IMG/VR virus record: IMGVR_UViG_3300042894_003937
Length of the DNA: 64,000 bases
Strand: one strand, 5' to 3'
DNA from: a virus
Taxonomy: Duplodnaviria > Heunggongvirae > Uroviricota > Caudoviricetes
Of the stretch, positions 1 through 47,383 are shown one piece after another. Within the stretch, counting starts at the first letter, position 1, and each line of letters opens with the position of its first letter. The position numbers and the translations under genes are program-made. The notes beneath the pieces are model-generated. The model saw only the letters and a program-made list of their open reading frames with translations. It was not told the DNA's origin and did not search any database.

Positions 1-54
1 ATACACGTTATATCAGAACCACGTACTTGGATTAAAGGAACTAAAGTAGTTCAA

Positions 55-486
55 TTGATTAGACCTAGAATACAGGTTATGAAGGTTAATCCATTGGCTC
101 TACAAGAACAACAAAGCTATACAGATAATTTTAAAGCACTTATTGAGAATGTAGATTTAAGTTGTTGTGGAATTAGTTGGTCTAACGGTGTCTTATATGA
201 AAATTGTGAGTCTGCAGTTTTACATTGTTTGAATAAACAATATACTGAAAATACAGGTGCTAGAATGTACTCATATGAAAGAGCAACACATAGAAGAGCT
301 AAATTAGAAAGTAGAGGATGGGAGCAAGTTTCTAGAAATAGAGTTCAAAGAAGAGATTTAAAGATTGACTTTGTACTAGAAAATAAAGAAGAATTTGAGT
401 TTACAAAAGAATGGAATGACACAGAACCACTGACGAAAAGTCAAGATCCACCAGCAAGTATGAGTAGAGGTAAAGTATGGAGCTAA
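55..486 (+). CDS. hypothetical protein (Cys-containing); ORF may begin upstream of the window
   Basis: 143-aa ORF; no recognisable motif; next gene overlaps its stop. Confidence 0.4.
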   Translation: MIRPRIQVMKVNPLALQEQQSYTDNFKALIENVDLSCCGISWSNGVLYENCESAVLHCLNKQYTENTGARMYSYERATHRRAKLESRGWEQVSRNRVQRRDLKIDFVLENKEEFEFTKEWNDTEPLTKSQDPPASMSRGKVWS

Positions 487-689
487 GAAGAGCATTTGTT
501 AAAGAAGACTCATTTTATTTAAAAAAGAATATATTATATGATGTTTATCAAGAAGTATGTGAACCACTTACTTGGACAAAGAATACTTTTTATGTAAAAC
601 ATTCACAAGGAGTTACAGCAGCAGATATAAATGATTTAATCTTTCTTGATGAATTAAGAGATAAAAAAATAGACGAACTATTTAAGTAG
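477..689 (+). CDS. small protein with C-terminal tail motif (..LDELRDKKIDELFK)
   Basis: 70-aa ORF; stop lies inside the palindrome at 657-710; tail motif R-D-K-K-I-D-E-L. Confidence 0.45.
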   Translation: MELRRAFVKEDSFYLKKNILYDVYQEVCEPLTWTKNTFYVKHSQGVTAADINDLIFLDELRDKKIDELFK

Positions 690-710
690 TTCGTCTATTT
701 TTTTATCTCT
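657..710. terminator. perfect inverted repeat (24-nt arms, 6-nt loop) between convergent genes; candidate bidirectional terminator
   Basis: agagataaaaaaatagacgaacta / tttaag / tagttcgtctatttttttatctct; arms are exact reverse complements; T-runs on both strands. Confidence 0.6.
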
Positions 711-1244
711 TCGTGAAGGAACATCTAAAAATCCATCCCATTTCCTAATTTCATCATTCTTAGCTTTAATTAGTTCAGCTCTTTTATTATCATCTAATTG
801 ATTTTTATAAAGCCAATCTAAGTGAGATTTAACATTATCAGAAATATATTTTATAGTACGACCACTAGTATCTATATCTACTAAATCATCTACAGTAAAG
901 ATATTCTGTCTATATAAGAAAAGTTTTTTCTTACCTATTACCGATGGGAAATAACCTAACTCAGAATGATAAATCCATTTTATATTTCTATATCTCTTAA
1001 AATTCCAAATATAGTTAAATATACTTTTCTTTCCATCCATTATAGCACCACCTATAAGACCATTTGTTATTAAATTCCATATCAGAAAGAAAAACAAACT
1101 TGAAAAAAGTACTGCACTAATATTAGTAGGATCTATAATACACATTTTTCCAAACCAAGTACATAAAACTGCACCTAAAATAACCAAACCAATTCCAAAA
1201 AAATGGAATAAAACAAAATTTAACTTACTATTCATATCTTTCAT
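678..1244 (-). CDS. membrane protein (several N-terminal TM helices) with C-terminal tail motif (..RRDKKIDELLK)
   Basis: 188 aa; hydrophobic N-terminal segments; C-terminus is encoded by the other arm of the 657-710 palindrome. Confidence 0.55.
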   Translation of the reverse strand: MKDMNSKLNFVLFHFFGIGLVILGAVLCTWFGKMCIIDPTNISAVLFSSLFFFLIWNLITNGLIGGAIMDGKKSIFNYIWNFKRYRNIKWIYHSELGYFPSVIGKKKLFLYRQNIFTVDDLVDIDTSGRTIKYISDNVKSHLDWLYKNQLDDNKRAELIKAKNDEIRKWDGFLDVPSRRDKKIDELLK

Positions 1245-3336: not shown

Positions 3337-3370
3337 AAAGAGAGAGCAATTTGCTCTCTTTTTTTATTTT
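3337..3370 (+). terminator. rho-independent terminator-like hairpin with T-run
   Basis: aaagagagagcaatttgctctctttttttatttt: stem agagagc/gctctct followed by T-tract. Confidence 0.5.
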
Positions 3371-6114: not shown

Positions 6115-6813
6115 ATGACAAAAACTACTACAGACTTTACAATAAATCAAAAATTTGACTTTTTAAGTGACTTAACTACTATGGTAGTAAACAATACTAC
6201 ACCATCCATCGTGGTTGTGGGACAAGGTGGACTAGGAAAAACTCACTCTGTGTTAGCAACCATCAAAGACAATGATGTTGATGAAAGTAATTTCTTATTC
6301 ATTAAAGGTTACTCAACTGCGAGAGGTCTTTATAATACTTTATATGATAATAACGGAAAACTGATCGTATTTGACGACTGTGACTCTGTGTTAGAAGATA
6401 AAATCGCACTTAACATCTTAAAATCAGCTCTTGACTCTTACGAAAAAAGAACAATAACTTGGTCTGCTCGTATGAATAAAGCAGATGTTTATCCACAATC
6501 ATTTGATTTCACTGGAAGAATTATCTTTATTTCTAATAAAGACAAATCTAAAATTGATGGTGCTATCTTATCAAGAAGTTTAACTGTTGATTTGAGTATG
6601 ACACCAGATGAAAAAATCGAAAGAATGGAATACATCTTACCTAACATCTTACCAGACTATGAGTTAGCAGTTAAGAAAGATGCTTTAAAATTCTTATCAG
6701 AGAATAAAGAAAGTGATAACTTGAACCTTAGAACATTGATAATGGTGTCTAAAATTAGACATTCTTACAAGAATACTTGGCAAGACTTATCAAACTATAT
6801 GATAAATTCATAA
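6115..6813 (+). CDS. P-loop NTPase (Walker A GQGGLGKT, Walker B LIVFDDCD)
   Basis: 232 aa with both Walker motifs. Confidence 0.6.
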   Translation: MTKTTTDFTINQKFDFLSDLTTMVVNNTTPSIVVVGQGGLGKTHSVLATIKDNDVDESNFLFIKGYSTARGLYNTLYDNNGKLIVFDDCDSVLEDKIALNILKSALDSYEKRTITWSARMNKADVYPQSFDFTGRIIFISNKDKSKIDGAILSRSLTVDLSMTPDEKIERMEYILPNILPDYELAVKKDALKFLSENKESDNLNLRTLIMVSKIRHSYKNTWQDLSNYMINS

Positions 6814-7049
6814 TGACTAATAGATCAGCATACGGAACATTTACCGTTGTTTATATCGACGACTACTATGATACTCTTACTACTGGTAAAGAGTATCAAG
6901 TCGGTATTTATGATATAATCGAACAAGGTTCTTCCGAAGAAAGCTATCTTATTGAAAATGATTTAGGTTACACTGAATGTTTCTATAGTGATAGTTTCAA
7001 AAGAGTAAACAAATCCGAAGAACGTGATATAAAGTTAAAGGAATTGTGA
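6777..7049 (+). CDS. small protein with tail motif (..EERDIKLKEL)
   Basis: 90-aa ORF. Confidence 0.45.
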   Translation: MARLIKLYDKFIMTNRSAYGTFTVVYIDDYYDTLTTGKEYQVGIYDIIEQGSSEESYLIENDLGYTECFYSDSFKRVNKSEERDIKLKEL

Positions 7050-7058
7050 ATATAAACT

Positions 7059-7433
7059 ATGATAAATTTTAAATGGAAAACTAAAAAGTCAGACTCTAGA
7101 GCTACATTCCCATTAGATGTAATCTATACTCGTAATATAAAATTATTATTCGGTATTCAAATAGCGGAATATATTCGTGTAGTTACTTATCCTGGTTGTA
7201 CTAATAAAAGATTTACATATCTACGAAGAGTTCTCACATCTGAAAGTCCGTGGACTCACCTACAAGATCCAAAATGGAAAATCAGAATAACTAGATCTTT
7301 AAATTTACTTCTTCATAAAGATATAGAAGCCAATGAAGTTTTAGAAACAAAATACATTAAAAAGTATCCATTTTTAATGAAAAACTTCTTAGAATTAGAA
7401 AGAGAAAGAAAACTCAAACAACTAGGAATATGA
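7059..7433 (+). CDS. hypothetical protein with tail motif (..RERKLKQLGI)
   Basis: 124-aa ORF. Confidence 0.5.
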   Translation: MINFKWKTKKSDSRATFPLDVIYTRNIKLLFGIQIAEYIRVVTYPGCTNKRFTYLRRVLTSESPWTHLQDPKWKIRITRSLNLLLHKDIEANEVLETKYIKKYPFLMKNFLELERERKLKQLGI

Positions 7434-7461
7434 CAAAAAATCAGTCAACTAATCAAACAAT

Positions 7462-7500
7462 AAATGTCGAGAAAAAACCCGACATTTATATTATTATTAG
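7462..7500. terminator. hairpin terminator between convergent genes
   Basis: aaatgtcg-agaaaaaacc-cgacattt followed by tatattattatt. Confidence 0.5.
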
Positions 7501-17052: not shown

Positions 17053-17661
17053 ATGAAACTATCATCCGAACTAAAAAAATTTATAGATAAAGAATACTCC
17101 AATCACCAATGCTTCCCACCTAAACACCTTATACTACACGCACTAAACAACATAGAAAACACCAAAGTTATCATCATAGGTCAAGACCCCTACCACGGCC
17201 ATAACCAAGCTCACGGTCTAGCTTTCTCCACACTCGACACCACAATCCCACCTTCTCTGAAAAACATCTTTAAAGAGCTTAATAACGATTTAAACATCGA
17301 AACACCAACACACGGTAACCTAACCCATTGGCATAACCAAGGAGTACTTCTTCTCAATACAATACTAACAGTAAGAAAACACCAACCACTATCCCATAAG
17401 AATAAAGGATGGGAACAATACACCAATAACATTATATCAGAACTAAATAATAATAAGAATAATCTCGTATTCATTCTATGGGGTTCACAAGCTCACAAGA
17501 CAGAGAAACTTATCGATACGAATAAACACCTTATATTAAAGTCTGGCCATCCATCACCACTATCCGCTAATGCAGGGAAATGGTTCAATAATAAACACTT
17601 TAGTAAAACGAATCAATATCTCACAGAGAATAATATAACACCTATCGACTGGACACTATGA
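17053..17661 (+). CDS. ung: uracil-DNA glycosylase, family 1
   Basis: GQDPYHGHNQAHGLAFS, VLLLNTILTVR, GHPSPLSA and PIDW are collinear with E. coli Ung; catalytic Asp and His motifs are intact. Confidence 0.92.
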   Translation: MKLSSELKKFIDKEYSNHQCFPPKHLILHALNNIENTKVIIIGQDPYHGHNQAHGLAFSTLDTTIPPSLKNIFKELNNDLNIETPTHGNLTHWHNQGVLLLNTILTVRKHQPLSHKNKGWEQYTNNIISELNNNKNNLVFILWGSQAHKTEKLIDTNKHLILKSGHPSPLSANAGKWFNNKHFSKTNQYLTENNITPIDWTL

Positions 17662-17996
17662 TAACAACTACCGCACTACCTAAATCAAAATACTTTATTA
17701 AGAACGTAATAGAAAGTTTTCACATACAAGGAACTACTATTGAGATAGAAGCATTCTATGATACATTACATAAAGGTAATAGATACTCTTGTACAGTCAA
17801 ATCAATAAGAACACAATATCCAACAGGACACTACAACCGTAAATCATTTAAAGTATGTGGTGGATATGGCAAAGATAATCAAATTACCCATCCAACATAC
17901 GAGAGTATTCTTCTACACGCTTTACAAATGGCCGAACTAGGTAACGATATAATAAGAGACTTTAAACTTAAACTTATACTAAATTCTACTGAATGA
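17658..17996 (+). CDS. hypothetical protein
   Basis: 112 aa; ATGA overlap with ung. Confidence 0.5.
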   Translation: MITTTALPKSKYFIKNVIESFHIQGTTIEIEAFYDTLHKGNRYSCTVKSIRTQYPTGHYNRKSFKVCGGYGKDNQITHPTYESILLHALQMAELGNDIIRDFKLKLILNSTE

Positions 17997-18229
17997 AAAC
18001 AACTGATGGGTACGAACTACCAGAAGAACACCTCGAAGTAATCAGAAATGTCTGTAATGTAAATGGTCAAGACTTTAATATAACTCTTATACAAAAGATG
18101 AAAAGATCTTACCAAATAGAAGGTACTTATAAAGGTATCGATAAACATTATACCGCTGAAATTGAATTCGATTATATCAAACAAGAGATTAGAAATAATC
18201 GAATAAATGATGTGTTAAATAACAAATAA
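17993..18229 (+). CDS. small protein with tail-like motif (..IRNNRINDVLNNK)
   Basis: 78 aa. Confidence 0.45.
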   Translation: MKTTDGYELPEEHLEVIRNVCNVNGQDFNITLIQKMKRSYQIEGTYKGIDKHYTAEIEFDYIKQEIRNNRINDVLNNK

Positions 18230-18762: not shown

Positions 18763-18864
18763 ATGAGTTATGCTGATTGGGCTAAACGGGTTCATAGACC
18801 GACGAATTTAAAGTGGATAAGAAAGAACTCACGAATGAGAAAGATTAAAAGGATATATGAATAA
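18763..18864 (+). CDS. tiny basic peptide, Fam-D (MSYADWAKRVHRPTNLKWIRKNSRMRKIKRIYE), 33 aa
   Basis: Hand translation; RMRKIKRIYE core. Confidence 0.35.
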   Translation: MSYADWAKRVHRPTNLKWIRKNSRMRKIKRIYE

Positions 18865-18868
18865 TGAT

Positions 18869-18905
18869 AAAACCCACTTAATAGTGGGTTTATCTGTTAT
18901 TATTT
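18869..18905. terminator. hairpin terminator aaaacccact-taat-agtgggttt plus T-rich tail; identical copy at 21755-21790
   Basis: 9-10 bp GC-containing stem, 4-nt loop, followed by atctgttattattt. Confidence 0.55.
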
Positions 18906-20457: not shown

Positions 20458-20764
20458 AGGAAAGTGTATTGTGGAGAAAGGTGATATAGTGCAAAGCACT
20501 CTCTGCGTGGGTGGAGTATTAGTTTGTAGGAAGACTTATTGTAGATATGTTTTATATAATCGTAGTTGGTCGAGAAATATAAGTGGTAAGAGTTATATTA
20601 TAATGGCGATAAAGGAAAGTGTAAATGTTTATGTTTCTAATGAAGAGGGAGGTTCTATGTTATTTTCTTTATATGATGATGGTAAGTTACCATATTTAGG
20701 GGATTATTTTATTTCGTTGGTGGATTTTCGTGAGGAAAAATTAGAACAAATTATAGGTAAATGA
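20444..20764 (+). CDS. small protein with C-terminal tail motif (..DFREEKLEQIIGK); start may be the internal ATG at 20603
   Basis: 106-aa ORF; stop overlaps the purN start (ATGA). Confidence 0.45.
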   Translation: MSVFKGKCIVEKGDIVQSTLCVGGVLVCRKTYCRYVLYNRSWSRNISGKSYIIMAIKESVNVYVSNEEGGSMLFSLYDDGKLPYLGDYFISLVDFREEKLEQIIGK

Positions 20765-21699: not shown

Positions 21700-21754
21700 C
21701 CGGATTTTAAACAATGAGACTTGGTATTCTATATTAGAATGAGTTGGATATGAT

Positions 21755-21790
21755 AAAACCCACTTAATAGTGGGTTTATCTGTTATTATT
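21755..21790. terminator. hairpin terminator identical to the one at 18869-18905
   Basis: gataaaacccacttaatagtgggtttatctgttattattt. Confidence 0.55.
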
Positions 21791-21799
21791 TTAGTTAAC

Positions 21800-22390
21800 T
21801 TAGTTGTATACTCTGATTTCTATTGGACTTGATTGTAAAAGGTCATTAAACGGTGTATTATCATAAGAAGTATGTAACTGCATAGTTCCTGTAGTTGTTA
21901 AATCAATTCCTAATATATAGGTGCCACCACTTCCACCATAAGGTAAACCCATAGCCCATGTTTTATTAGTAAACGCTCCATTTATTATATATCCTCCTAC
22001 TCCATTATAAGAAAAAGTAGGTGTAAATCCTAAAGTATTTTCTAACACAACAGCAGTTGGAGCTGCTGTACCACTCTGTGTTAATAAAGCAGTATAAACT
22101 GAGTATAACGGTAATGCAGATGTTCCGGAAGTACCATTTAAACCAGAGGTTCCAGAAGTACCATTTATACCAGAAGTTCCAGAGGTTCCAGAGGTTCCAG
22201 AAGTACCATTTATACCAGAAGTTCCATTTATACCAGAAGTACCAGAGGTTCCAGCTATACCAGAAGTTCCAGAAGTACCAGAGTTTGATTGTGTTAAACC
22301 AGCTAACTGATCTTCTAAATAGTGAAAGTTGTTATCCATTTGAGCAACTGATAATGCTCCGTCTTGTTCTGATCTATATGTAATACCCAT
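21800..22390 (-). CDS. collagen-like repeat tail-fibre-like protein, short paralog (Gly-Thr-Ser triplets)
   Basis: N-terminal 33 aa identical to the 22497..24305 product; (GTS)n/(GIN) triplet run; shared C-terminal domain ending PIEIRVYN. Confidence 0.7.
22287..22390. repeat. about 104-bp near-identical repeat (fibre gene 5' end), copy 1
   Basis: Matches 24202..24305 apart from a few substitutions. Confidence 0.6.
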
Positions 22391-22496: not shown

Positions 22497-24305
22497 TTAG
22501 TTATATACTCTTATTTCGATTGGAGTTCTTAATATTAAATCGTCTGCACCAGTACTACTCTGATTAGTTGCTATATATATATCATTAGAAGTAGTGTCTT
22601 CATTATCAACATAAAAGTCATAATCATTGATAGCCCAATGATTTTTACAAAAGAACACTACGGTTTTTAATAAAGGAAATCCACCAGTACTACTTAAAAA
22701 ATATAAACCGGGAGAGTCTCTATTCCAAACGGGAGTAAAACCTAAAGTATTTTCTAACACAGAGGCTGTTGGTGATGCTGTACCACTCTGTGTTAATATA
22801 GCGGTATAAACTTTATATTTTGGTGCATAAGCCGTAGTTTGAACCGAATTATCTGGGAATGTTATACTTCCAGTTGTACCAAATACCCAGTTTTCAGGTC
22901 CATCATTATCACCAGTTTGTATAGTAACAGTTCCATTATCAGCAATCACTCTACCACTCTGATAACGAATTATTTCTATATCTATTCCAGTTATAGCCAA
23001 ACTCGCAGTTGGTGCATTCTGGTCCACGGTTAAAACTATTGGGTTTGACTGGACCTTATTCGTGATATTTAGGCTTACTGCTGTAGTTGGATCGTAAAAC
23101 ACTGTAAATATGTCTGTTGCTACTTGATAACCGTTTATGAAATTTACTAGAGTTGAATCTGGATTAGTAATAGTTATCAGATTGCCAGACCATGTAGCAG
23201 AATCATAGTTAGATCCTACAGAGCAACTTGCAGAATCTTGAGTGTATAAATTCTTTGAATTTATTTGTACTGTTTTACTAGTGTCACTAACTTTTAAGTT
23301 ATTATCTTCACCACCAATGAATAGATCAGTTGCACTATCATCGATAGGACCACCTGCACGAATATGTATATGATTAGGACTTCCTTCAGTAGGATCTAAT
23401 ATAATGTATTGGTCAGTTTCTAAAGAAGAATCTGGTTTTAATACTATTATTGGACCAAGACCAAGATTGACTGATTCTATTTGACTACCATTAGAATTTA
23501 TAGCACCAGTAATATTCACATCACCATCTACATCTAAAGCTACTGATGGATTGGTTGTTCCTATACCTATCTTACCATCATTAGTAATTCTCATTCTTTC
23601 ATCACCATCAGTTTGCACGATTACGTTTCCTCCCGCGGTGCCTCCACCTCCTGCGTTTATAACGATATTACCACCAGTATTAGCTCCGTAACCAGATTCA
23701 ATGTATACTTCACCACCATAACCATTATTACTTTGTCCTGCATATATTTCAACAAAACCACCATCACCTGTATCTGTGTATCCACCTCTTATCTTAACTG
23801 TACCTCCTTCTGAGATACCTTCTCCTGCATCAACTTTAATATCTCCACCATTTTGTCCTTTACCGGCCCATAGGTAAATGTCTCCACCTTCGCCACTGTA
23901 GGTAAGTCCATTTTGATAACTATCACCACCAGATATGACTAATCTTTCAACGGTCGGAGCAGATCCTGTTCCATCTTGAGTTGATATGATTTTTTGGTAT
24001 ACACTTCCTTTTTCAAATTGAAGGTTATCTCCGCTTCCTGTTCTTTGGTTACCTGGTAAGAATGGAAAACTAATTGCACCGGTTGTACCAAACCCTGCAG
24101 GTCCTGTAGCACCTTGTGGTCCAGTAGGTCCTTGAGGTCCTGTAGCACCATTTATACCAGAAGGTCCTGTAGCACCGGCAGGTCCAGTAGCACCAGAACC
24201 AGAGTTTGTTAAACCAGCTAACTGATCTTCTAAATAGTGAAAGTTGTTATCCATTTGAGCAACTGATAATGCACCGTCTTGTTCTGATCTATATGTAATA
24301 CCCAT
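22497..24305 (-). CDS. collagen-like repeat tail-fibre-like protein, long paralog
   Basis: 602 aa; G-X-Y collagen-like repeats (GATGPAGATGPSG..); Gly-rich beta-rich middle; C-terminal domain shared with the short paralog. Confidence 0.75.
   Translation of the reverse strand: MGITYRSEQDGALSVAQMDNNFHYLEDQLAGLTNSGSGATGPAGATGPSGINGATGPQGPTGPQGATGPAGFGTTGAISFPFLPGNQRTGSGDNLQFEKGSVYQKIISTQDGTGSAPTVERLVISGGDSYQNGLTYSGEGGDIYLWAGKGQNGGDIKVDAGEGISEGGTVKIRGGYTDTGDGGFVEIYAGQSNNGYGGEVYIESGYGANTGGNIVINAGGGGTAGGNVIVQTDGDERMRITNDGKIGIGTTNPSVALDVDGDVNITGAINSNGSQIESVNLGLGPIIVLKPDSSLETDQYIILDPTEGSPNHIHIRAGGPIDDSATDLFIGGEDNNLKVSDTSKTVQINSKNLYTQDSASCSVGSNYDSATWSGNLITITNPDSTLVNFINGYQVATDIFTVFYDPTTAVSLNITNKVQSNPIVLTVDQNAPTASLAITGIDIEIIRYQSGRVIADNGTVTIQTGDNDGPENWVFGTTGSITFPDNSVQTTAYAPKYKVYTAILTQSGTASPTASVLENTLGFTPVWNRDSPGLYFLSSTGGFPLLKTVVFFCKNHWAINDYDFYVDNEDTTSNDIYIATNQSSTGADDLILRTPIEIRVYN
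24202..24305. repeat. about 104-bp near-identical repeat (fibre gene 5' end), copy 2
   Basis: Matches 22287..22390. Confidence 0.6.
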
Positions 24306-26171: not shown

Positions 26172-26271
26172 GATTTGAACCATTAAAATCATCATTGACA
26201 CAAATTTAGATGCTGATTACAAATTCGTAGTTCTAAATAGAAACTAAAATAATAAATTATACAAACAAAAT

Positions 26272-26302
26272 AAAAAAACCAGTTAAAGACTGGTTTTTTT
26301 AT
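26272..26302. terminator. bidirectional hairpin aaaaaaaccagt-taaag-actggttttttt
   Basis: Perfect 12-bp stem flanked by A- and T-runs, between convergent genes. Confidence 0.55.
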
Positions 26303-26499
26303 TCTACCTTCTTTTCTATTCTATTTGTTTTCGTATTAAATAACATATCACCACCTATAATCTCATACGCTATCCCATTTATAACCTTTGTTTTACCGTG
26401 GTCTTTATGTGAACGTATTGTTTTGAGTAAGGTTGAATTATCTTCACAGAAAACTCTGTGAGGTGCTTTTCTAGTAGTAGTTGCCATTAGTTTATACAA
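26299..26499 (-). CDS. small hypothetical protein
   Basis: 66 aa. Confidence 0.45.
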   Translation of the reverse strand: MYKLMATTTRKAPHRVFCEDNSTLLKTIRSHKDHGKTKVINGIAYEIIGGDMLFNTKTNRIEKKVE

Positions 26500-26687
26500 A
26501 CAGCATTTACATCTTCATCACCTTCTTGGAACTCCATATCTTCATAGTAACCTTTGGATGGTGTATAATGAACTTCTTGGAACCCATTACCTTCATCATC
26601 ACGTGAGTAGATAACATCCATATCTAATGTTTCTGGGTTTGCTTCGGCAAACTTTTGTAATTGTTCGATATATTCTCTTAGTTTCAT
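26487..26687 (-). CDS. small acidic hypothetical protein
   Basis: 66 aa. Confidence 0.45.
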   Translation of the reverse strand: MKLREYIEQLQKFAEANPETLDMDVIYSRDDEGNGFQEVHYTPSKGYYEDMEFQEGDEDVNAVCIN

Positions 26688-27058
26688 TTTATATTTAATT
26701 GTTTTAGTTTATCTTCTCTTATTTCTGCAATTGATCTAGTATGTAATAACATTTCTTTTTTAATCTTCCAATGCCAATATTGTGTATAAGGATCAAAAAA
26801 CGGTATGAAGTCTTTATGTATGTAACCATTGGTTAGTTTAATAGTTTCATCTTGTTTAAAGTATAAAACTGCACCAGGTTTATCTTTAGATGTGAATGTA
26901 ATGAATATTTCATTATTACTACTCAATATATAATCTTTATTCTTTATAACAAGATAGGTTTCTTTATAATACTTATACTTTGGATAGTAAGTTAAGAATG
27001 AAGCAAGCCAAAATATACTTATTACTACCAGTAATACTGAAGTCAAGATTAGTATCAT
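26684..27058 (-). CDS. membrane protein (N-terminal TM) with tail motif (..IREDKLKQLNIK)
   Basis: 124 aa. Confidence 0.5.
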   Translation of the reverse strand: MILILTSVLLVVISIFWLASFLTYYPKYKYYKETYLVIKNKDYILSSNNEIFITFTSKDKPGAVLYFKQDETIKLTNGYIHKDFIPFFDPYTQYWHWKIKKEMLLHTRSIAEIREDKLKQLNIK

Positions 27059-27351
27059 TATATTTTAGGATAAACTCTTGATTTAGAAACTTCAATAACC
27101 ATCTTAACTTTATCTTCTGTAACTTCAAGAATTTCACCATTTATACTACCAGACATAACAGGAGTATAAACTAGGTCACCTTGCTTCATAGTAGGTGTAT
27201 ATTCTTTTCTTTTCTTTTCAGTTTGTAATGTTCTGTAAGCCGCATAAACTATAAATGAACCTAAGAAGGCTAATAGTAATAATAGAATTAGATTTGTATA
27301 TAAGATTGCATCTTGCATTGCTAAATCAGTAACCGGTAGTTTTGCGTTCAT
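27058..27351 (-). CDS. small membrane protein
   Basis: 97 aa; one TM helix. Confidence 0.5.
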   Translation of the reverse strand: MNAKLPVTDLAMQDAILYTNLILLLLLAFLGSFIVYAAYRTLQTEKKRKEYTPTMKQGDLVYTPVMSGSINGEILEVTEDKVKMVIEVSKSRVYPKI

Positions 27352-27352
27352 A

Positions 27353-27841
27353 TTATATTTCTAGTTTAATGTATTTCGAATCTTCTTTATAATCAATGAA
27401 CGTAATGTCGGTCACCTCATCTTCAATACTATCTTTTATCTTTTGTTTGGTTTCTTCTGAGATTGTGAATAGTTTCATTACTGATTTATAGATAGACCCA
27501 AAAGTCTGTTGTCTACTTTTTATATCATATACTTCTACTAAGCCATCCTTATAGTCATACGAGAACCATAATCCTTCCACCCATACACTCTGTTCTCTTT
27601 TTATATTTAGTGTCTTATCTAACGCTATATCTCTCCAATATGATATAGTCAATGAGTCTACTATTGGTTTAATCCAAGTTAGTAAATTTCTATCATCTAC
27701 TTCATCCTCTGGAAAGTTTACCCAATATGATTTACCATCAGGTCTTTCGATGGTAGCTCTTCTTTCGTCCGTATTATGACCTGAGTATCTACAAGGTTGT
27801 TTTGTCATATTACAAAGATACAATTTATATTTCAGTCTCAC
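27353..27841 (-). CDS. hypothetical protein
   Basis: 162 aa. Confidence 0.5.
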   Translation of the reverse strand: MRLKYKLYLCNMTKQPCRYSGHNTDERRATIERPDGKSYWVNFPEDEVDDRNLLTWIKPIVDSLTISYWRDIALDKTLNIKREQSVWVEGLWFSYDYKDGLVEVYDIKSRQQTFGSIYKSVMKLFTISEETKQKIKDSIEDEVTDITFIDYKEDSKYIKLEI

Positions 27842-28475
27842 AAGAAGACATCACTTCATTTATCTTCTTTTCTCTACTATCTGCAATTATCTGATAGATA
27901 TAATCGGTAAGACCTTCTTGTTTAAGAGTATCTATATTATTGAAAACACTTCTACTTTCTACATAATCTTCTATGAAGAATGGTTGATTCTGTTTTAACC
28001 AATCAATCCAAGCCCTTTGACTATTAATATCAATATTTGGTTTATCCCATTCTTGTTGAATAACTTCACAGTTATCGAATGATGGTAAATGACCGATATA
28101 TGAACCTATCAATTTAATATTTATTTTTAGATGATCGTTATTTCTTGGATCAAACTGGTAAGAATTTATTAGTTTATCTTTGAGTGTTTTACCAACTAAA
28201 GTAAATTTTATCTGACCTTCGTGATAGATACAAAGAGCTATCTTTGTGTTTTGTAGTTTTGATGGATAATTTCCCTGAGCTAACGCACCACCTTGATACA
28301 ATCCTTCTTGATAAGCTTTGGTTTTTAAAGCCGTTTTTAGATGATTCTGTGGTGTATCATAGATTACTTTACCACCAATATAAAAACCTCTTAGTTCTTC
28401 TACTGGTGAGAATGAGCCGTCTTTTTTAATGATTGGTAGTATTTTTATTATGTCACCGTCTTTTAGTTTGTACAT
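27825..28475 (-). CDS. hypothetical protein
   Basis: 216 aa. Confidence 0.5.
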   Translation of the reverse strand: MYKLKDGDIIKILPIIKKDGSFSPVEELRGFYIGGKVIYDTPQNHLKTALKTKAYQEGLYQGGALAQGNYPSKLQNTKIALCIYHEGQIKFTLVGKTLKDKLINSYQFDPRNNDHLKINIKLIGSYIGHLPSFDNCEVIQQEWDKPNIDINSQRAWIDWLKQNQPFFIEDYVESRSVFNNIDTLKQEGLTDYIYQIIADSREKKINEVMSSCETEI

Positions 28476-28484
28476 GATTTTAAC

Positions 28485-28781
28485 TTAATTAAAGCAGATA
28501 TAATTACCTACATAATATCTATTAAAAGTTTGAGGATCGATATAAACCGTTATAAATGTACCATTCTGATTTATATCAAATGAATATTGAGTGTTTCCAT
28601 TATTTCTTTTAGAAGCGATTAAGCCACAACCATAATATCTTTCAGTATAATTTGGATATAAAAATCCAATATTGTAATAAACTGGATTTATATAATTTGG
28701 AATTTGATAATTTGGAATTGGTTCTACAACACATCCACTTAATGTAAATGATAGTACAATTGCTAATATAATTTTTTTCAT
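28485..28781 (-). CDS. lipoprotein (signal peptide plus lipobox LSGC)
   Basis: MKKIILAIVLSFTLSGCVV. Confidence 0.55.
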   Translation of the reverse strand: MKKIILAIVLSFTLSGCVVEPIPNYQIPNYINPVYYNIGFLYPNYTERYYGCGLIASKRNNGNTQYSFDINQNGTFITVYIDPQTFNRYYVGNYICFN

Positions 28782-28785
28782 AGTT

Positions 28786-29013
28786 TTATTTTTTTAGTTT
28801 TTTTATTTCAATTATAAATATGTATTTGAATGCTGCCCACATCCAAAATACGGTAGCAGAGGTAACTACTAGATTTATGAACAATTGTTTTATCGAGAAA
28901 CCTTGTTGGTATATATACCACCATCCACATATACTATTAACGATTAGTGATAGCATACATAAAATCATAAATGTTATATAAATAACATCACCAGGTGTTG
29001 GTTTTACTTTCAT
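28786..29013 (-). CDS. small membrane protein (2 TM)
   Basis: 75 aa, hydrophobic. Confidence 0.5.
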   Translation of the reverse strand: MKVKPTPGDVIYITFMILCMLSLIVNSICGWWYIYQQGFSIKQLFINLVVTSATVFWMWAAFKYIFIIEIKKLKK

Positions 29014-29297
29014 ATTAAATCGTTTTTATATATCTCTACTGCTCTTTCTAAGATTCTTTTCAACTCTTTTTTATCCATTCTTGGGTCTTCAATATCAAAA
29101 TCAACATTAAATGCAAATTTAGGTCGTTGTTCTACTATTTTATCACCAAAGAGCCAATATTTTTTATACACTTCTTCGGTATATCCAAAATAAAAGTTGT
29201 ACCCTTTAAAGATGGCTGTTGATGCGGCATCATTACTATGAGTGTAATGTTTTGAATAAAAATATTCTTCACCTAAAATTATTATACTTTTCATCAT
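29010..29297 (-). CDS. hypothetical protein
   Basis: 95 aa. Confidence 0.5.
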   Translation of the reverse strand: MMKSIIILGEEYFYSKHYTHSNDAASTAIFKGYNFYFGYTEEVYKKYWLFGDKIVEQRPKFAFNVDFDIEDPRMDKKELKRILERAVEIYKNDLI

Positions 29298-29516
29298 TTA
29301 TATCAATTTATTTAATTTTTTATCTCTTTCTACTTCTAAGGTAGCATCTTCAAATTGTCCCAATAAAAGATAGTATGAATCATTATCATAGTTATCATTG
29401 ACTTTAACAATTAAATTAGCATCAAACTTTGAAGTACCAATATAGTCGATTACTTTATATACTTCACCTTCACTTAATCGGTAACCATCCTTTTTTATAC
29501 ATCTTACCCACTTCAT
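29298..29516 (-). CDS. small protein with tail motif (..VERDKKLNKLI)
   Basis: 72 aa. Confidence 0.5.
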   Translation of the reverse strand: MKWVRCIKKDGYRLSEGEVYKVIDYIGTSKFDANLIVKVNDNYDNDSYYLLLGQFEDATLEVERDKKLNKLI

Positions 29517-31529: not shown

Positions 31530-31570
31530 AAAAAGAGAGGGTCTTAATAAGACCCTCTCTTTTATTATTT
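31530..31570. terminator. strong bidirectional hairpin agagagggtctta / taagaccctctct plus T-run
   Basis: 13-bp GC-containing stem between convergent genes. Confidence 0.6.
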
Positions 31571-32661: not shown

Positions 32662-33048
32662 TTACTCTAATATTTTATTTAATTGTTTATCTCTATATAA
32701 TTCAATAGAGAATAATTGTTTTATATTTTCTTTTGTTAGTTCGATATATTGTTTACCTTCCTTAAGCATTGCTCTATCTTTTATTCTTCTTAAAGCTTCT
32801 TTAACATCTACTGATAATGATAATGTAGAATTATCAACACCTTCTTTTAATACTGGTTCTTGCCATACAGGATGAGTATAAACTTTATAGTTATCTATAT
32901 CAAATGAGAGTTTAAGTGTTTCGAGTGATATAATAGGTTCTGTTGAAAGACTTATATTTTGGTGGAGTTTTTCTAGGTCTTGATCTTTCGTTTCTAGATT
33001 GATAGTATATGGAAGTTGCATCATTGTTATGATTGCGTCTATTGTCAT
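32662..33048 (-). CDS. hypothetical protein with tail motif (..YRDKQLNKILE)
   Basis: 128 aa. Confidence 0.5.
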   Translation of the reverse strand: MTIDAIITMMQLPYTINLETKDQDLEKLHQNISLSTEPIISLETLKLSFDIDNYKVYTHPVWQEPVLKEGVDNSTLSLSVDVKEALRRIKDRAMLKEGKQYIELTKENIKQLFSIELYRDKQLNKILE

Positions 33049-33236
33049 AGTATTTGATTTAGTTTATCTTCTCTTAATTCTTGTACAGTAGCAAAGTTTA
33101 CTTTGTGATACCGAGAAGAGTTCCAAGGTATATCAGTATGGTTTTCTAATTGGAATGATTGTGAGGAGGAAAGTATTACCTTATACCATTCTCCTTTTAT
33201 CAGAAATCTTGAACCTCTTACACACAGAACTTTCAT
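33045..33236 (-). CDS. Fam-B small protein (MKVLCV.., ..ELREDKLNQIL)
   Basis: 63 aa. Confidence 0.5.
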   Translation of the reverse strand: MKVLCVRGSRFLIKGEWYKVILSSSQSFQLENHTDIPWNSSRYHKVNFATVQELREDKLNQIL

Positions 33237-33253
33237 ATGGTTTATTTATTTGT

Positions 33254-33353
33254 AGTCAGGACAGGATTCGAACCTGTATGTAACTTTATGTTTCCACTCC
33301 GTCTATAGTTACTACGGTATACTTAGCGTCTTACCAATTCCGCCACCTGACTA
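33254..33353 (-). tRNA. tRNA-like gene (Leu-like D-arm; canonical acceptor and T arms; anticodon arm not resolved, about 100 nt)
   Basis: Minus-strand RNA AGTCAGG-TG-GCGGAATTGGTAAGACGC..ACAGG-TTCGAAT-CCTGT-CCTGACT; 7-bp acceptor stem, GGTTCGAATCC T-arm, GGCGGAATTGGTA D-arm; no canonical 5-7-5 anticodon arm found by hand. Confidence 0.45.
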
Positions 33354-33438
33354 AAAATGAGAGTTCCATACTTCCGGGAAGTCACTCACAACCCACCTGC
33401 TTCTTTGTTTACTTTACAAAGATATGATATATATTTGA

Positions 33439-33672
33439 TTATATAATCTTATTTATTTGTTGTTCTCTCCATTTATCTAATTCCATAAAGTATTTCATCA
33501 TGTAAGCATAGTACTGGTTATTATCATCAGTAATCCATACTGCTATATCACCATCTAAAGAAAATATCTTATCTACGGTATAAACTTTCTGTAGGGTTAG
33601 ACCATCTATTTTAACACCATCAGGATAATGTTTGTTGATGGCTATATTATTTATACAAATGATTTGGTTCAT
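33439..33672 (-). CDS. Fam-B-like small protein (..KWREQQINKII)
   Basis: 77 aa. Confidence 0.45.
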   Translation of the reverse strand: MNQIICINNIAINKHYPDGVKIDGLTLQKVYTVDKIFSLDGDIAVWITDDNNQYYAYMMKYFMELDKWREQQINKII

Positions 33673-33680
33673 TATGGTAA

Positions 33681-33896
33681 CTATATTCCTATTTGTTTTA
33701 ATTTTTGTAATCGATTATTAAGTTTTATTTGGTCTTCGTGTATTTCTAGTTCAGATTCAACGAATGGGAAATTAGAGTTCTCGACATAAACAAATAAAGC
33801 ATCTATATTAGTTATAATACGTCTTGTGCCGGGAATACTTTTAATCTTTACTATATCACCAACATTCATATTAGTCAATGTTTTGAAATTCTTCAA
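33681..33896 (-). CDS. small protein with tail motif (..LQKLKQIGI)
   Basis: 71 aa. Confidence 0.45.
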   Translation of the reverse strand: MKNFKTLTNMNVGDIVKIKSIPGTRRIITNIDALFVYVENSNFPFVESELEIHEDQIKLNNRLQKLKQIGI

Positions 33897-34182: not shown

Positions 34183-34227
34183 ATGTCGTTATTTAATACA
34201 ACAAAGATATGGATATTATTTTATAAT

Positions 34228-34238
34228 ATATACATTAT
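34228..34238 (+). promoter_or_regulatory. ATATACATTAT box 1 nt upstream of the ATG
   Basis: Recurrent start-proximal motif. Confidence 0.35.
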
Positions 34239-34239
34239 T

Positions 34240-34686
34240 ATGAAACATTTAAAAAAATTTAATGAAAGTTTAGAACCAGTTGAGATCGATGAGTTAAAAG
34301 ACTTCTGTGAGACATCACTCGCTTATCTATTAGATGATGGGTATCAAGTTAGTGTATATGAATCAAGATTTAAAGATGTATCTGTAAGAGATAAAGTAAA
34401 GTATCCTGAGAAAGAACATACAATTGTAAGTTTGGGTTTAAAAGGAAAAATGGGTTATAGGTTATTCGATTGGAATGATATAAAAGATTATTACATACCA
34501 TTTCTTCAAATGTTAGTAAGAAGATATGAATTACTACCTTTCGGAATGTATGATAAGATTTGTTATTTTAATACCGAAGGTGGTTTTAGATATTTATCAT
34601 TAGATCAAGTTATAAATGATAGGGTTGGCTCAGAACTTGGTAGTCGTTTGTGGGGAATAAATATAATGATAGTAGATAAGATATGA
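34240..34686 (+). CDS. Fam-A paralog (start at MKHLKKFNES)
   Basis: DFCETSLAYLLDDGY..NDIKDYYIPFLQML; the ORF-track start upstream is unlikely. Confidence 0.7.
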   Translation: MKHLKKFNESLEPVEIDELKDFCETSLAYLLDDGYQVSVYESRFKDVSVRDKVKYPEKEHTIVSLGLKGKMGYRLFDWNDIKDYYIPFLQMLVRRYELLPFGMYDKICYFNTEGGFRYLSLDQVINDRVGSELGSRLWGINIMIVDKI

Positions 34687-35123
34687 AACATTTGAAAAGA
34701 TATAATGAAAGTTTACAACCTAATGAGGTTGACGAGTTAAAAGACTTCTGTGAGACTTCATTGGCTTATCTATTAGATGATGGATATAATGTTGATGTTT
34801 CTATAAGAAATTCAGTAGGGTATCCAGGAAATAATCAAGTAATCGTAAGTTTGGGTTTACCTACATATAGTGAAAGTGGTTTACTGGATTATAAAAGGTT
34901 CCATTGGAATGATGTAAAAGATTATTACATACCATTTCTTCAAATCTTAGTAAGAAGATATGAGTTGCTGCCTTATAGAGGTGAGGGTTATGTTTATTTT
35001 AATGGTGAGATGGGATTTGACTATTTCTCATTAGATGAAGTAATAGATGATACGGTCAGTGGTATGAATCACATTGGTAGTAGTTTATGGGGTATAAATA
35101 TAAAAATAGTAGATAAGATATAA
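34683..35123 (+). CDS. Fam-A paralog
   Basis: MKHLKRYNES..DFCETSLAYLLDDGY..NDVKDYYIPFLQIL; ATGA overlap. Confidence 0.7.
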   Translation: MKHLKRYNESLQPNEVDELKDFCETSLAYLLDDGYNVDVSIRNSVGYPGNNQVIVSLGLPTYSESGLLDYKRFHWNDVKDYYIPFLQILVRRYELLPYRGEGYVYFNGEMGFDYFSLDEVIDDTVSGMNHIGSSLWGINIKIVDKI

Positions 35124-43624: not shown

Positions 43625-43639
43625 CTTTAGATAATTAGA

Positions 43640-43672
43640 AAAGAAGTGTGGTGAAAACTACACTTCTTTTAT
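43640..43672. terminator. bidirectional hairpin aaagaagtgtg..cacacttcttt
   Basis: 11-bp stem between convergent genes, flanked by A/T runs. Confidence 0.55.
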
Positions 43673-44298: not shown

Positions 44299-44487
44299 TT
44301 ATTCTAATTCTATTTGTTTATTTTTTCTTCTATCAGCTTTTCTTCTAGCTACTTTCGCTTTGGCTCTTGCTTTTCTAGCATTACCATAACGTTCACCTCT
44401 TTCTTCTTGCCACGTTGCTTCGCCTCGGTCGGCGTTTAAACTGATGGTGTAACCAGTTCGTGTCGATAGTTTTGATACTTTTTTCAT
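44299..44487 (-). CDS. small highly basic protein
   Basis: 62 aa; RKARAKAKVARRKADRRKNK. Confidence 0.4.
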   Translation of the reverse strand: MKKVSKLSTRTGYTISLNADRGEATWQEERGERYGNARKARAKAKVARRKADRRKNKQIELE

Positions 44488-44723
44488 ATTCCCAATTCTT
44501 TTAACTTGTTATCTCTTGACATTGATTTTGTGATAAACATATTTTTCTTGTAGTAAACTTTCATATCACCTAAGTCGGTTCTAATGAAAAGGTGTTTACT
44601 TTCTACACCATTATAAACAAAACCTCCAAACTCATAAGACTTACCTTTGGTTAGTTCCTTTACTTTGCCTTGACCTGGTATATTTCGGTAGAAGTCTCTT
44701 ACTGGTATTACTATATCTATCAT
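44484..44723 (-). CDS. small protein with tail motif (..SRDNKLKELGI)
   Basis: 79 aa. Confidence 0.45.
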   Translation of the reverse strand: MIDIVIPVRDFYRNIPGQGKVKELTKGKSYEFGGFVYNGVESKHLFIRTDLGDMKVYYKKNMFITKSMSRDNKLKELGI

Positions 44724-44728
44724 ATTCT

Positions 44729-45448
44729 TTACTTTTTAAATTCAAATTGTATTAAACCCCAATCAACTTCAAGGCCGTTTGCGGTAGATTTTATTCCTAA
44801 TATATCACGAATCCCATCATAAATAATATTTTCATTGACTTTATCTAACCCAAAGAAATAAGAAAAGAAACAAAGCATCTCAGATTTATCTTTAAATACA
44901 AACGGATACTGGTTATATTGTGTTCTTATAATCTTTTGTTGTAATAATGGAAATTCATTAAATGAATCTTCTGTAAAGAAAATTCCATTATGACCTAATG
45001 AATTATATTCATTAACAAATTCATTTAAAAAAATATCAACTGCGGTATCTTTTTTTACATCAGAGAAGATAAATGAACCATTTGCTTTCAAAACTCTCAA
45101 ACATTCGTTCACAAATTTAGGAACATCATTCAAATGATGTAAACCACTTAAAGAAAGAACTAAGTCAAATGAATTATCCGAATATGAAAATTGTGTAGGA
45201 TCTACAAGTTGTATATTTTCATTTGTAAAACCTTCTGAAAAGTCTGCCGAGATAAGTTCAATATTGTTAGGAAGATATTTTTTTAAATACCCACCACCAG
45301 ATGGAATATCTAAAACGTTCTTAATGTTTGAAAAATCGGTACTACCGATTAAACTTTCAAATTCATAAGAACGAACATCTGGATATTTCTGCATCGCCCA
45401 GTGATAATCATTTGCTCTTTTTTCAAAAATCTTTTGGTAGTCGTTCAT
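44729..45448 (-). CDS. class I SAM-dependent methyltransferase
   Basis: Motif I VLDIPSGGGYL, acidic loop, FDLVLSLSGLHH, LKANGSFIFSD. Confidence 0.65.
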   Translation of the reverse strand: MNDYQKIFEKRANDYHWAMQKYPDVRSYEFESLIGSTDFSNIKNVLDIPSGGGYLKKYLPNNIELISADFSEGFTNENIQLVDPTQFSYSDNSFDLVLSLSGLHHLNDVPKFVNECLRVLKANGSFIFSDVKKDTAVDIFLNEFVNEYNSLGHNGIFFTEDSFNEFPLLQQKIIRTQYNQYPFVFKDKSEMLCFFSYFFGLDKVNENIIYDGIRDILGIKSTANGLEVDWGLIQFEFKK

Positions 45449-46339
45449 TTACTTATTTATAAAATTTTTCATTTTCCAAGCTTCCAATGTATTTAGAATC
45501 AATCCCGATATAGTCATTGGTCCAACACCTCCAGGTACTGGAGTTATTCTAGCTTTCTTTACAATTTCTTCATAGTCACAATCACCTACTAGTTTACCAT
45601 TATCTAGTTTATTGATACCAACATCAATCACAACTGCACCTTCTTTAATCATATCTGCTGTTACTAAATTAGGTTTACCAACTGCTACAATAACAATATC
45701 TGCTTTTAAACACTCTTCATTTAGAAGCAACTTAGGTGTATTTATATCACACGTGGTTACTGTTGATCTTCCAATGTTAAAATCATTAGATAACATAATA
45801 GAGATAGGTTTACCAACGTGATTTGATTTCCCTATAACAACGACATGTTTTCCTTTTGTTTCAATTTGGTAATACTCTAGAAGTTTCAGAATACCATAAG
45901 CGGTGGCGGGTCTCATTGATTTTTGACCTAAACACATTTTACCAAAGTTAAGTGGATGAAAACCATCAATATCTTTGTAAGCACTTATTTCATTGATAAT
46001 TGGTTCAGGTCGGATATGATTAGGTAGTGGTAGTTGAACTATGAATCCATCGTGGTGAGATTTATTTAGATTTTTGACTTCTAGTAATAAATCATACTCG
46101 GATATAGTTTCATCAAATCTAATTAGGTTGTAGTTGATGTTAGCGGATTCACAAGCTTTTAATTTGGCTTTGACATATGATTCGGATGCGGGGTTATTAC
46201 CGACAAGAATGATTGCTATACTAGGTTTAGCAATTTTATATCCTAATCTGATTTTAGATTCATTTATATGTTCGTCAACTGACTCTTTAATTTGGTTGAT
46301 AATTTTATCTGCTACTAGTTTGCCGTTTAATCTATTCAT
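45449..46339 (-). CDS. folD: bifunctional methylene-THF dehydrogenase/cyclohydrolase
   Basis: Full-length collinearity with FolD: GKHVVVIGKSNHVGKP, PVPGGVGPMT, DVDGFHP. Confidence 0.92.
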   Translation of the reverse strand: MNRLNGKLVADKIINQIKESVDEHINESKIRLGYKIAKPSIAIILVGNNPASESYVKAKLKACESANINYNLIRFDETISEYDLLLEVKNLNKSHHDGFIVQLPLPNHIRPEPIINEISAYKDIDGFHPLNFGKMCLGQKSMRPATAYGILKLLEYYQIETKGKHVVVIGKSNHVGKPISIMLSNDFNIGRSTVTTCDINTPKLLLNEECLKADIVIVAVGKPNLVTADMIKEGAVVIDVGINKLDNGKLVGDCDYEEIVKKARITPVPGGVGPMTISGLILNTLEAWKMKNFINK

Positions 46340-46568
46340 TATTTAATAGTTGATTTAATTTTTGTTCTCTTATATTTTGTATAGTCATAAAGTAGGTAAT
46401 TATTTTACCACTTTCATAACCATAAAGTGAAGGCCAACCTCTCACACCACGATCATTTAGAATGTCTAGGTTAAAACCAGTTAAATCACTTATTAGTTGG
46501 TATTTCTTACCTTTAGTAAAGTTAGCAAATCTGTGATCAACACATACTACCCAATCACCTTTTTTCAT
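46332..46568 (-). CDS. Fam-B small protein (..NIREQKLNQLLNNE)
   Basis: 78 aa; stop overlaps the folD start. Confidence 0.5.
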   Translation of the reverse strand: MKKGDWVVCVDHRFANFTKGKKYQLISDLTGFNLDILNDRGVRGWPSLYGYESGKIITYFMTIQNIREQKLNQLLNNE

Positions 46569-46792
46569 ATCAATTTATCTAATTGTTGTTCTCTCCACTG
46601 TTCTATGGTAAGAAAGTATTTTCTATCTAAAGCATATTCTGTACCTTCTTTAACAAAGAAGTATCTAGTTTTTAGAAATGGTTCAGAATCTTCTGAGTAA
46701 TCATTTCTAGATTTTTCAGTTACATCAATCCATTCACCTAACTTAATACGAAGAGTTCTTAAATGAGTATTTGATACACATATTACTTTCAT
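46565..46792 (-). CDS. Fam-B small protein (MKVICVSNT.., ..EQWREQQLDKLI)
   Basis: 75 aa; 5' 27 nt plus 13 nt upstream identical to the gene at 47138..47383. Confidence 0.55.
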   Translation of the reverse strand: MKVICVSNTHLRTLRIKLGEWIDVTEKSRNDYSEDSEPFLKTRYFFVKEGTEYALDRKYFLTIEQWREQQLDKLI

Positions 46793-47136
46793 ATACCTAG
46801 TTTATTTAATTTCTTCTCTCTTGTCTTATCTATACGATTCAGAAAATCTGGTATATCAGGAACTTCGTGATATTCCCACCACTCTGAACCATCATACTCA
46901 CCTCTTGTTGTCCAAGTACCGTCTTCATACCAAATCATACCATCTAGTTCTTGGCCACCATACCCGTTATTATACTCTCTATCTATATCAGATAAAAACT
47001 GATTATATTCATCTTCGGTGTATCCGGTTGTAAGTGAGAACCTTTCATCTTCATAATCTAACTCTATATAAGCACATTTGATTACTTTACTTTTGGTGTG
47101 TCTAACAAACTCTTCTTTTGCATTTATTATAGCCAT
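46789..47136 (-). CDS. small acidic protein with tail motif (..TREKKLNKLGI)
   Basis: 115 aa. Confidence 0.5.
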   Translation of the reverse strand: MAIINAKEEFVRHTKSKVIKCAYIELDYEDERFSLTTGYTEDEYNQFLSDIDREYNNGYGGQELDGMIWYEDGTWTTRGEYDGSEWWEYHEVPDIPDFLNRIDKTREKKLNKLGI

Positions 47137-47137
47137 A

Positions 47138-47383
47138 TTATATTCCCAGTTTTTCTAATTGGTTATTTCTCCATTTTTGTTTGTAATCTTCTGCCTTGAC
47201 AAAATATCCAGGTGGTATCCATCTTTGTTCTTCCTCAACCCAATTTGAGAAAGTTTCCCAATTATCTATATCAGTTTGCATTACTAATCCAGATAATGTA
47301 TATTCTTTACCTATTACTAGTAATGGTTCGCTTCTTTTATAATTATTTATTACGATAGTATTTGATACACATATTACTTTCAT
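47138..47383 (-). CDS. Fam-B small protein (MKVICVSNT.., ..KWRNNQLEKLGI)
   Basis: 81 aa. Confidence 0.55.
   Translation of the reverse strand: MKVICVSNTIVINNYKRSEPLLVIGKEYTLSGLVMQTDIDNWETFSNWVEEEQRWIPPGYFVKAEDYKQKWRNNQLEKLGI

Follow-up and report, generated by a model that had tools for sequence, protein, structure and literature searches.

Two convergent genes of an uncultured phage end inside the opposite arms of one palindrome and finish with almost the same peptide. This locus raises the question of what the palindrome does, how both proteins came by the residues that it encodes, and whether a C-terminal motif that recurs in many genes around it is tied to nucleic-acid structure. The palindrome was examined in its window (i.e. 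the whole stretch of DNA that was analysed, 64 kb) and in related metagenomic loci. Its anatomy and its conservation are those of a terminator: it most probably corresponds to a bidirectional intrinsic (Rho-independent) terminator that two convergent units share and that lies within both of their ORFs. It is best understood as a common type of two-way stop signal inside the ends of two facing genes, which is neat and not fundamentally new. A single DNA segment nevertheless finds triple use here, contributing to two proteins on opposite strands and to an RNA/DNA structure.

The window (30% G+C) seems to belong to the genome of a very large uncultured phage. Its FolD-like gene (45449..46339) was 72% identical to a gene of LR745206.1, an uncultured 635-kb phage, and about 48% identical to genes of Lak megaphages. 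A megablast search among GenBank phages yielded no close DNA relative of the window. Scans of IMG/VR with genes A and B (see below) recovered no relatives and tblastn searches of phage records with gene B gave no match. Likewise, no Pfam or PHROGs family was found for either gene or for the neighbouring ones.

Coding content and geometry of the junction

Gene calling based on codon usage recognized 129 genes, which occupy 58 of the 64 kb, and genes A and B both scored well (Table 1). At their junction, which was also present in relatives, gene A was the last plus-strand gene and gene B the last of a three-gene minus-strand block. The two ORFs overlapped by 12 nt and terminated as ..LRDKKIDELFK-TAG and ..RRDKKIDELLK-TAG, respectively, each TAG pairing with a CTA Leu codon of the partner gene at the top of the stem. 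The initial annotation had described convergent genes that end in opposite arms and carry a common RDKKIDEL tail; this first observation is confirmed and lies far beyond chance. The C-terminal ..WDGFLDVPSRRDKKIDELLK was the most conserved part of protein B. AlphaFold models were of low confidence for both proteins (pLDDT 69 for A, 61 for B). They proposed a small beta domain followed by a C-terminal helix for A, and both tails were modelled as short terminal helices.

Some Lak megaphages recode TAG and the genetic code was therefore tested here. Recoding of TAG or TGA was ruled out, as ORFs became not markedly longer when either codon was read as sense. In locus L012, gene A stopped at the identical position with TAA instead of TAG, and the tails were kept in homologues. 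With the standard code in use, the suspicion that the ORF ends had been mis-called and that the real stop codons lay upstream was dismissed.

The element had been presented as a perfect palindrome of 54 nt. Its arms were indeed exact reverse complements, yet its real size was 56 nt, with 27 of 28 positions paired and a mismatched centre. Segment 657-680 (AGAGATAAAAAAATAGACGAACTA) was the exact reverse complement of 687-710, and positions 656 and 711 also paired, giving arms of 25 nt; an inverted-repeat search delimited arms of 28 nt with 96% complementarity. The central TTTAAG is not fully self-complementary (T681 versus G686) and this mismatch is the sole cause of the difference between the LFK and LLK tails, the peptides of A and B being otherwise identical because the palindrome is read in the same frame on both strands. 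RNA folding gave -41.4 kcal/mol (z -9.1) for the plus strand and -35.1 kcal/mol (z -8.3) for the minus strand. Positions 656-711 formed the longest perfect hairpin within the window, the next stem reaching 16 bp. The chance expectation for a 25-bp perfect hairpin at the window's base composition was estimated at about 3e-8 per window. A search of the window for further copies retrieved only the palindrome's own two arms (at most three mismatches) and one chance-level match, and an Rfam search gave no match at the site. A weaker inverted repeat (649-685 / 766-802, 76% complementary) was taken as chance.

Table 1. Coordinates of the junction, of the hairpins of similar form and of the tail-motif genes in the window.
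Feature	Position	Strand	Description
Whole palindrome	656..711	both	arms 656-680 and 687-711, 25 nt, perfect, around 681-686 (TTTAAG)
~244-aa gene, 3' part	1..486	+	start outside the window
Gene A	477..689	+	70 aa; tail-motif gene, variably present at the junction; last codons pass through the left arm
Gene B	678..1244	-	188 aa; N-terminus with two predicted transmembrane helices; right arm made up of its last codons
A7 tract	663..669		U-tract for minus-strand transcripts; gene A codons Lys-Lys and first base of Ile
Core stem, left half (TAGACGAACTA)	670..680		gene A Ile-Asp-Glu-Leu codons; 678-680 antisense of gene B stop
Loop TTTAAG	681..686		Phe-Lys in gene A, Leu-Lys in gene B
Core stem, right half (TAGTTCGTCTA)	687..697		687-689 gene A stop; on the minus strand, gene B Ile-Asp-Glu-Leu codons
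T7 tract	698..704		U-tract for plus-strand transcripts; antisense of gene B Lys-Lys codons
Same-form hairpin	3337-3363		
Same-form hairpin	18864-18905		identical at 21750-21791
Same-form hairpin	26269-26303		
Same-form hairpin	31531-31563		
Same-form hairpin	43639-43670		
Same-form hairpin	55175-55204		
Dense motif arrays	26684-29516, 32662-33896, 44484-48622		
Other motif sites	1502-2918, 6813-7433, 17658-18229, 20603-20764, 51412-51993, 58661-58813, 62772-62978		

Within the palindrome, a unit of the form A7 - TAGACGAACTA - 6-nt loop - TAGTTCGTCTA - T7 was recognized. Its core can be described as a stem of 11-13 bp with four G:C pairs, closed by a loop of 4-6 nt, and folded at -15.9 kcal/mol on the plus strand and -14.6 kcal/mol on the minus strand. 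Both transcribed strands thus yield a stable hairpin containing G:C pairs with a U-tract directly 3' of it, at the 3' ends of convergent transcription units. A terminator scan reported the site on the minus strand; since it counts the tail after the longest possible stem, the plus-strand site is hidden from it. As far as anatomy is concerned (A7, an 11-bp stem with four G:C pairs, T7, and a stem conserved through compensatory changes, see below), the earlier proposal of a bidirectional terminator held. We infer that RNA polymerase would terminate at the palindrome. The position of the stop codons in the top of the stem may render this termination inefficient or dependent on translation.

At least six intergenic hairpins of the window displayed the same A/T-flanked form, at gene ends or convergent junctions, with folding energies of -7 to -17 kcal/mol. 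The palindrome was the only hairpin of its class lying wholly inside coding sequence. Two of the intergenic copies (18864-18905 and 21750-21791) were identical 42-nt terminator-like hairpins (ATGATAAAACCCACTTAATAGTGGGTTTATCTGTTATTATTT) located 2886 nt apart, both at convergent junctions.

Conservation and covariation among relatives

Gene B had 33 metagenomic homologues sharing 52-95% identity, and DNA was compared for 17 B loci comprising 12 distinct hairpin sequences and 13 distinct B genes. The most conserved segment of the protein was ..EI(R/K)KWDG(F/Y)LDVP(S/T)RRDKKIDELLK. The last 33 nt of the gene were identical in 15 of the 17 loci, although the proteins were 52-96% identical. Among the 13 distinct genes, identity of codons specifying the same residue reached 0.986 over the last 11 codons, versus 0.785 over the rest. 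Asp and Leu were specified in both arms by rarer, more G+C-rich codons (GAC, 15% of the Asp codons; CTA, 16% of those for Leu), a choice that doubles the G:C content of the stem, and the probability of finding identical codons for the same eight residues was about 0.003. Taken at the sequence level, the gene B tail is under a nucleotide constraint that adds to the constraint on the protein.

Substitutions in the arms followed the structure. Two independent double substitutions were compensatory. In L022, an AAC codon replaced GAC, turning Asp into Asn in B, and the opposite arm had T for C, so that a G:C pair became A:T. In L025, CAA replaced GAA (Glu to Gln in B) and the opposite arm had G for C, converting G:C into C:G. 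L012 displayed a G:C to U:G change in the core helix. Only these three arm substitutions were informative, the B tail being nearly invariant at the nucleotide level. Across the 12 distinct loci, pairing in the core helix reached 97% and two base pairs differed at both of their positions; this level of double changes was matched in 2 of 500 shuffles and no double change was obtained in any slid register. Compensatory substitution, as expected of a terminator stem, was therefore observed. Comparison of the loci shows that the structure constrains the proteins, residue changes in the gene B tail being accompanied by corresponding changes in the opposite arm.

Conservation was not uniform along the palindrome. 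Pairing of the A/T-tract helix was kept in 90% of cells among the 12 distinct loci, and that of the outer helix (AGAGAT/ATCTCT) in 54%, full pairing of the latter being restricted to the three aligned carriers of gene A (the window, L012 and L015). Persistence of the core and of the A/T tracts, but not of the outer helix, indicates that the conserved unit is the terminator and not the long palindrome. In L022, the T-tract following the stem on the strand of gene B was degraded (TTTATTTCC).

Gene A and the C-terminal motif

Most relatives (L003-L008, L013, L014, L016-L020 and L025) lacked gene A. In these loci, gene B faced a convergent gene of 241-247 aa at a distance of 12-14 nt, the stop of this ~244-aa gene merged with the A-tract and the second arm was non-coding spacer. 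Alignment of empty sites (L013, L016, L008, L007 and L017) with filled ones (the window, L012 and L015) revealed about 210 extra nt in the latter, between the stop of the 244-aa gene and the A-tract, with an arm sequence identical in both and an insert of gene A ending exactly at the A-tract. Presence of gene A was patchy with regard to gene B identity: it was absent from L013 (96%) and present in L015 (85%).

Gene A itself had 19 homologues. The copies at the B junction, 83-99% identical to each other, ended with LRDKKIDELFK. Other copies (L009, L010 and L011) belonged to arrays of small genes oriented in the same direction and ended with LRDNKLNELGI, LRDKKLEKILNED or LRDKKINKILI, their tail being encoded by AGA GAT AA(A/T) AAA (A/T)TA ... 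A further gene A variant (P0040) ended with IDDLFK. At the right boundary of gene A, the native tail and the arm were identical over 10-11 nt.

These observations are consistent with the following scenario. In this clade, the 3' end of gene B would have taken in the terminator, and its Lys-Lys-Ile-Asp-Glu-Leu codons supply one A/T tract and one half of the stem. In the ancestral state, the other half would be spacer, with the ~244-aa gene stopping right at the A-tract. In the lineage of the window, the 70-aa tail-motif gene A would then have come to separate the 244-aa gene from the terminator. The tail of gene A, which natively starts with AGA GAT AAA AAA (A/T)TA, would have been linked to the older arm at the A-tract without loss of frame, so that, beyond its Arg-Asp-Lys-Lys codons, the junction copy would consist of the pre-existing terminator arm. 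Because this arm is the reverse complement of the gene B tail and the frame was kept, gene A still ends with a valid motif tail, KKIDELFK. A gene grafted onto an existing terminator arm can in this manner retain a functional-looking C-terminal motif. The palindrome would have been extended from ~18 to 25 bp because gene A's own Arg-Asp codons (AGAGAT) happen to be complementary to those of gene B. We infer that the fusion took place by recombination at the A-tract microhomology provided by the 10-11-nt identity. On grounds of parsimony, a gain of gene A is favoured over repeated losses, since empty sites are found in the most divergent B lineages and the junction copies are young. The notion that both genes acquired their tail from the palindrome is hence retained for gene A, fused in frame to the arm, and abandoned for gene B, whose tail, like the hairpin, is ancestral at this site.

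Gene content beside the junction was mosaic in L003-L008, L025 and L024. In L024 (874-1020), no more of gene A than its last 20 codons was present, fused to a new N-terminus, together with the palindrome and behind a different gene; the junction is therefore considered a hot spot of mosaicism. Two types of 244-aa gene end occurred at the junction among relatives. In most of them, a 234-aa R2K gene (ATP-grasp-like, PF14243/PF18299) was found upstream of gene B; it was absent from the lineage of the window.

The tail motif was searched for in six-frame ORFs of at least 30 aa with the strict pattern R-[DENQ]-x-[KQ]-[LI]-x-x-[LI]. The 26 instances found in the window were all located 0-7 residues from the C-terminus and never internally, for an expectation after residue shuffling of 0.12 at C-termini and 1.2 anywhere. 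The motif can be written roughly as (aromatic/aliphatic)-R-[DE]-x-[KQ]-[LI]-x-x-[LI]-(L/G)(I); about a fifth of the 129 called genes carried it, with 30 matches to a loose pattern and 26 to the strict one. Most motif genes followed one another head to tail, the stop codon of one overlapping the start of the next. Synonymous codons varied among the copies (AGA/CGT, TTA/CTA/CTT/CTC/TTG, GAA/GAG), as expected for a motif acting at the protein level. The pattern was recovered within eight residues of the C-terminus in A and B and, independently of the hairpin, in their homologues. It was also encountered in LR745206.1 and related metagenomic loci, and was not found in the 41 kb of Lak-A2 that were examined. 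It is predicted to be helical. No Pfam or PHROGs family covers it, and a literature search on such a tail motif in huge phages returned nothing relevant.

The association of this widespread motif with a nucleic-acid structural element, put forward in the initial annotation, did not extend beyond the A/B locus. The other 28 motif genes lacked an end hairpin, their codons varied, and none of them ended in a partial palindrome, perfect stems being limited to about 6 bp. The median minimum free energy of gene ends was -6.3 kcal/mol for the 30 loosely defined motif genes (A and B included) versus -6.5 kcal/mol for the others. The motif gene at 7059..7433, located at an operon end, had its own terminator further downstream (7460-7489). 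In L021, the B homologue (40% identity) encoded SRRDKKIDNLLK, with the tail RRDKKIDNLLK, using common codons and devoid of hairpin or pairing, and was directly followed by a separate canonical terminator. These findings indicate that the motif is a protein feature older than the overlap, and that only in the clade studied here did the terminator move onto it. The idea that this abundant motif is a by-product of nucleic-acid structure is thereby removed; as a protein feature, it is possibly the most interesting one of the window, ahead of the hairpin.

In the minus-strand array at 44484-47607 (e.g. at ends 47380, 46789 and 44484), ..KLGI tails were encoded by ..CTA GG(T/A) ATA TGA. The Gly codon provides an AGG Shine-Dalgarno-like element, and ATATGA contains the next start overlapping the stop. 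The DNA of this tail variant thus has a second use, as the region where translation of the following gene is initiated.

Known systems and alternative readings

A-tract terminators act in both directions, and some of them extend into the gene upstream (PMC4824070). Bidirectional terminators typically have A and T flanks (PMC1852404), which can pair with each other, thereby extending the stem (PMC1852404, PMC4824070). Like these elements, the palindrome displays an A-tract, a G+C-containing stem, a short loop and a T-tract in a symmetric arrangement at a point of convergence. Unlike them, it occupies no intergenic space: its stem halves and tracts are codons of overlapping ORFs, its top base pairs are two stop codons and its arms encode the same family-wide motif peptide. 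As in terminators that overlap an upstream ORF, described in work on lambda tR2, the hairpin begins before the stop codon. In the lambda case, a ribosome stopped a few bp before the terminator can strongly repress termination (PMC4824070), whereas in the palindrome this potentially repressive geometry is conserved on both strands. This suggests either weak coupling between ribosome and polymerase or a deliberately translation-sensitive termination.

Other mobile or modular elements resembled the palindrome less. REP- and MITE-like elements would be expected in many dispersed copies, contrary to what was found in the window. Integron attC-like sites would imply an imperfect palindrome at the 3' end of every cassette gene and a dedicated recombinase, yet the other motif genes lacked palindromes and no recombinase domain was found in neighbouring genes. 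PeSL promoter/stem-loop cassettes are proposed mediators of modular gene shuffling in T4-type phages. Like them, the palindrome is a short conserved stem-loop that marks gene boundaries within a hyperplastic stretch of small genes, with neighbours gained and lost; unlike them, it has no promoter and is single-copy, and the recurring sequence is a coding tail motif with variable codons instead of a DNA cassette.

Four other readings of the palindrome or its motif were weighed against the terminator. It is rather improbable that the palindrome primarily serves as a DNA-level site of recombination or docking (a cruciform or a homology linker for cassettes) with terminator activity as a secondary trait. 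Presence or absence of gene A in closely related backgrounds, the two types of 244-aa gene end, the truncated gene A of L024 and the 10-11-nt identity at the right boundary would all fit such a site. Yet the junction contained no recombinase or endonuclease gene, the sequence was single-copy in the window, and variable neighbours are explained by general phage mosaicism. Moreover, conservation coincided exactly with the terminator stem and its A/T tracts, leaving out the outer palindrome, and the compensatory changes preserved pairing and not sequence. The hairpin could also act mainly after transcription, as a 3' stabiliser, as a target of RNase III or through pairing of the convergent mRNA 3' ends. 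Stable 3' hairpins generally protect mRNA, and the two messengers would be complementary over, at a minimum, the 12-nt ORF overlap and both arms. The A/T tracts, conserved at 90% pairing, are nevertheless specific to termination and unneeded by a stabiliser, which makes this very unlikely as the main role; such a role would in any case be compatible with termination.

Hardly any credit was given to the proposal that the tail motif is the translated footprint of a DNA or RNA structural element, with motif genes ending in hairpins or partial palindromes. Motif codons and stem do coincide at the A/B locus, and the preferred codons (AGA GAT AAA AAA ..) are A-rich and can act as an A-tract. This is outweighed by the strictly C-terminal location of all 26 strict instances (0.12 expected in shuffles), the ordinary folding energies and missing hairpins at motif gene ends other than those of A and B, the differing synonymous codons, the head-to-tail arrays with overlapping stops and starts, and the hairpin-free tail of L021. 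Finally, the perfection of the arms (25/25) might betray a very recent event, i.e. a functionless inverted duplication or an assembly artefact such as a fold-back chimera. The chance of this is negligible: the structure was found in independent assemblies (JGI, ENA and Logan) from different samples, in several sequence backgrounds and at internal positions of long contigs, and its core was kept, with compensatory changes, where B proteins were only 52-58% identical.

The terminator reading can be extended by a joint interpretation of the geometry, which we consider unlikely, combining translation-gated termination with a docking function of motif DNA. With the stops located in the top of the stem, a ribosome that completes either gene would open or mask the terminator; termination, and hence antisense read-through into the partner gene, would depend on the coupling of translation and transcription. 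The DNA encoding the tail motif (AGAGATAAAAAAAT..) would in turn act as a homology linker through which small motif genes dock in frame at terminators or at other motif genes. If true, such docking would be what makes small genes turn over like cassettes in these huge phages.

Several features elsewhere in the window were recorded in passing. Two pairs of adjacent paralogues displayed near-identical C-termini: 21800-22390 and 22497-24305 on the minus strand (..PIEIRVYN), the 602-aa member having weak tail-fibre PHROG matches, and 34183-34686 and 34683-35123 on the plus strand (..LWGINI(M/K)IVDKI). An Rfam tRNA match of 100 nt (37.3 bits) was obtained at 33253-33352 on the minus strand, where ARAGORN gives none; it may represent an unusual tRNA or one interrupted by an insertion or intron. 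At 54669-55171 (plus strand), two adjacent small and very lysine-rich ORFs, ending with ..KGGKWKKAKKKKK and ..GSKGEGRKPNYAK, may encode DNA-condensing proteins. A 71-aa gene for an Hc1 histone-like protein (PF07432) was observed elsewhere, in related contigs.
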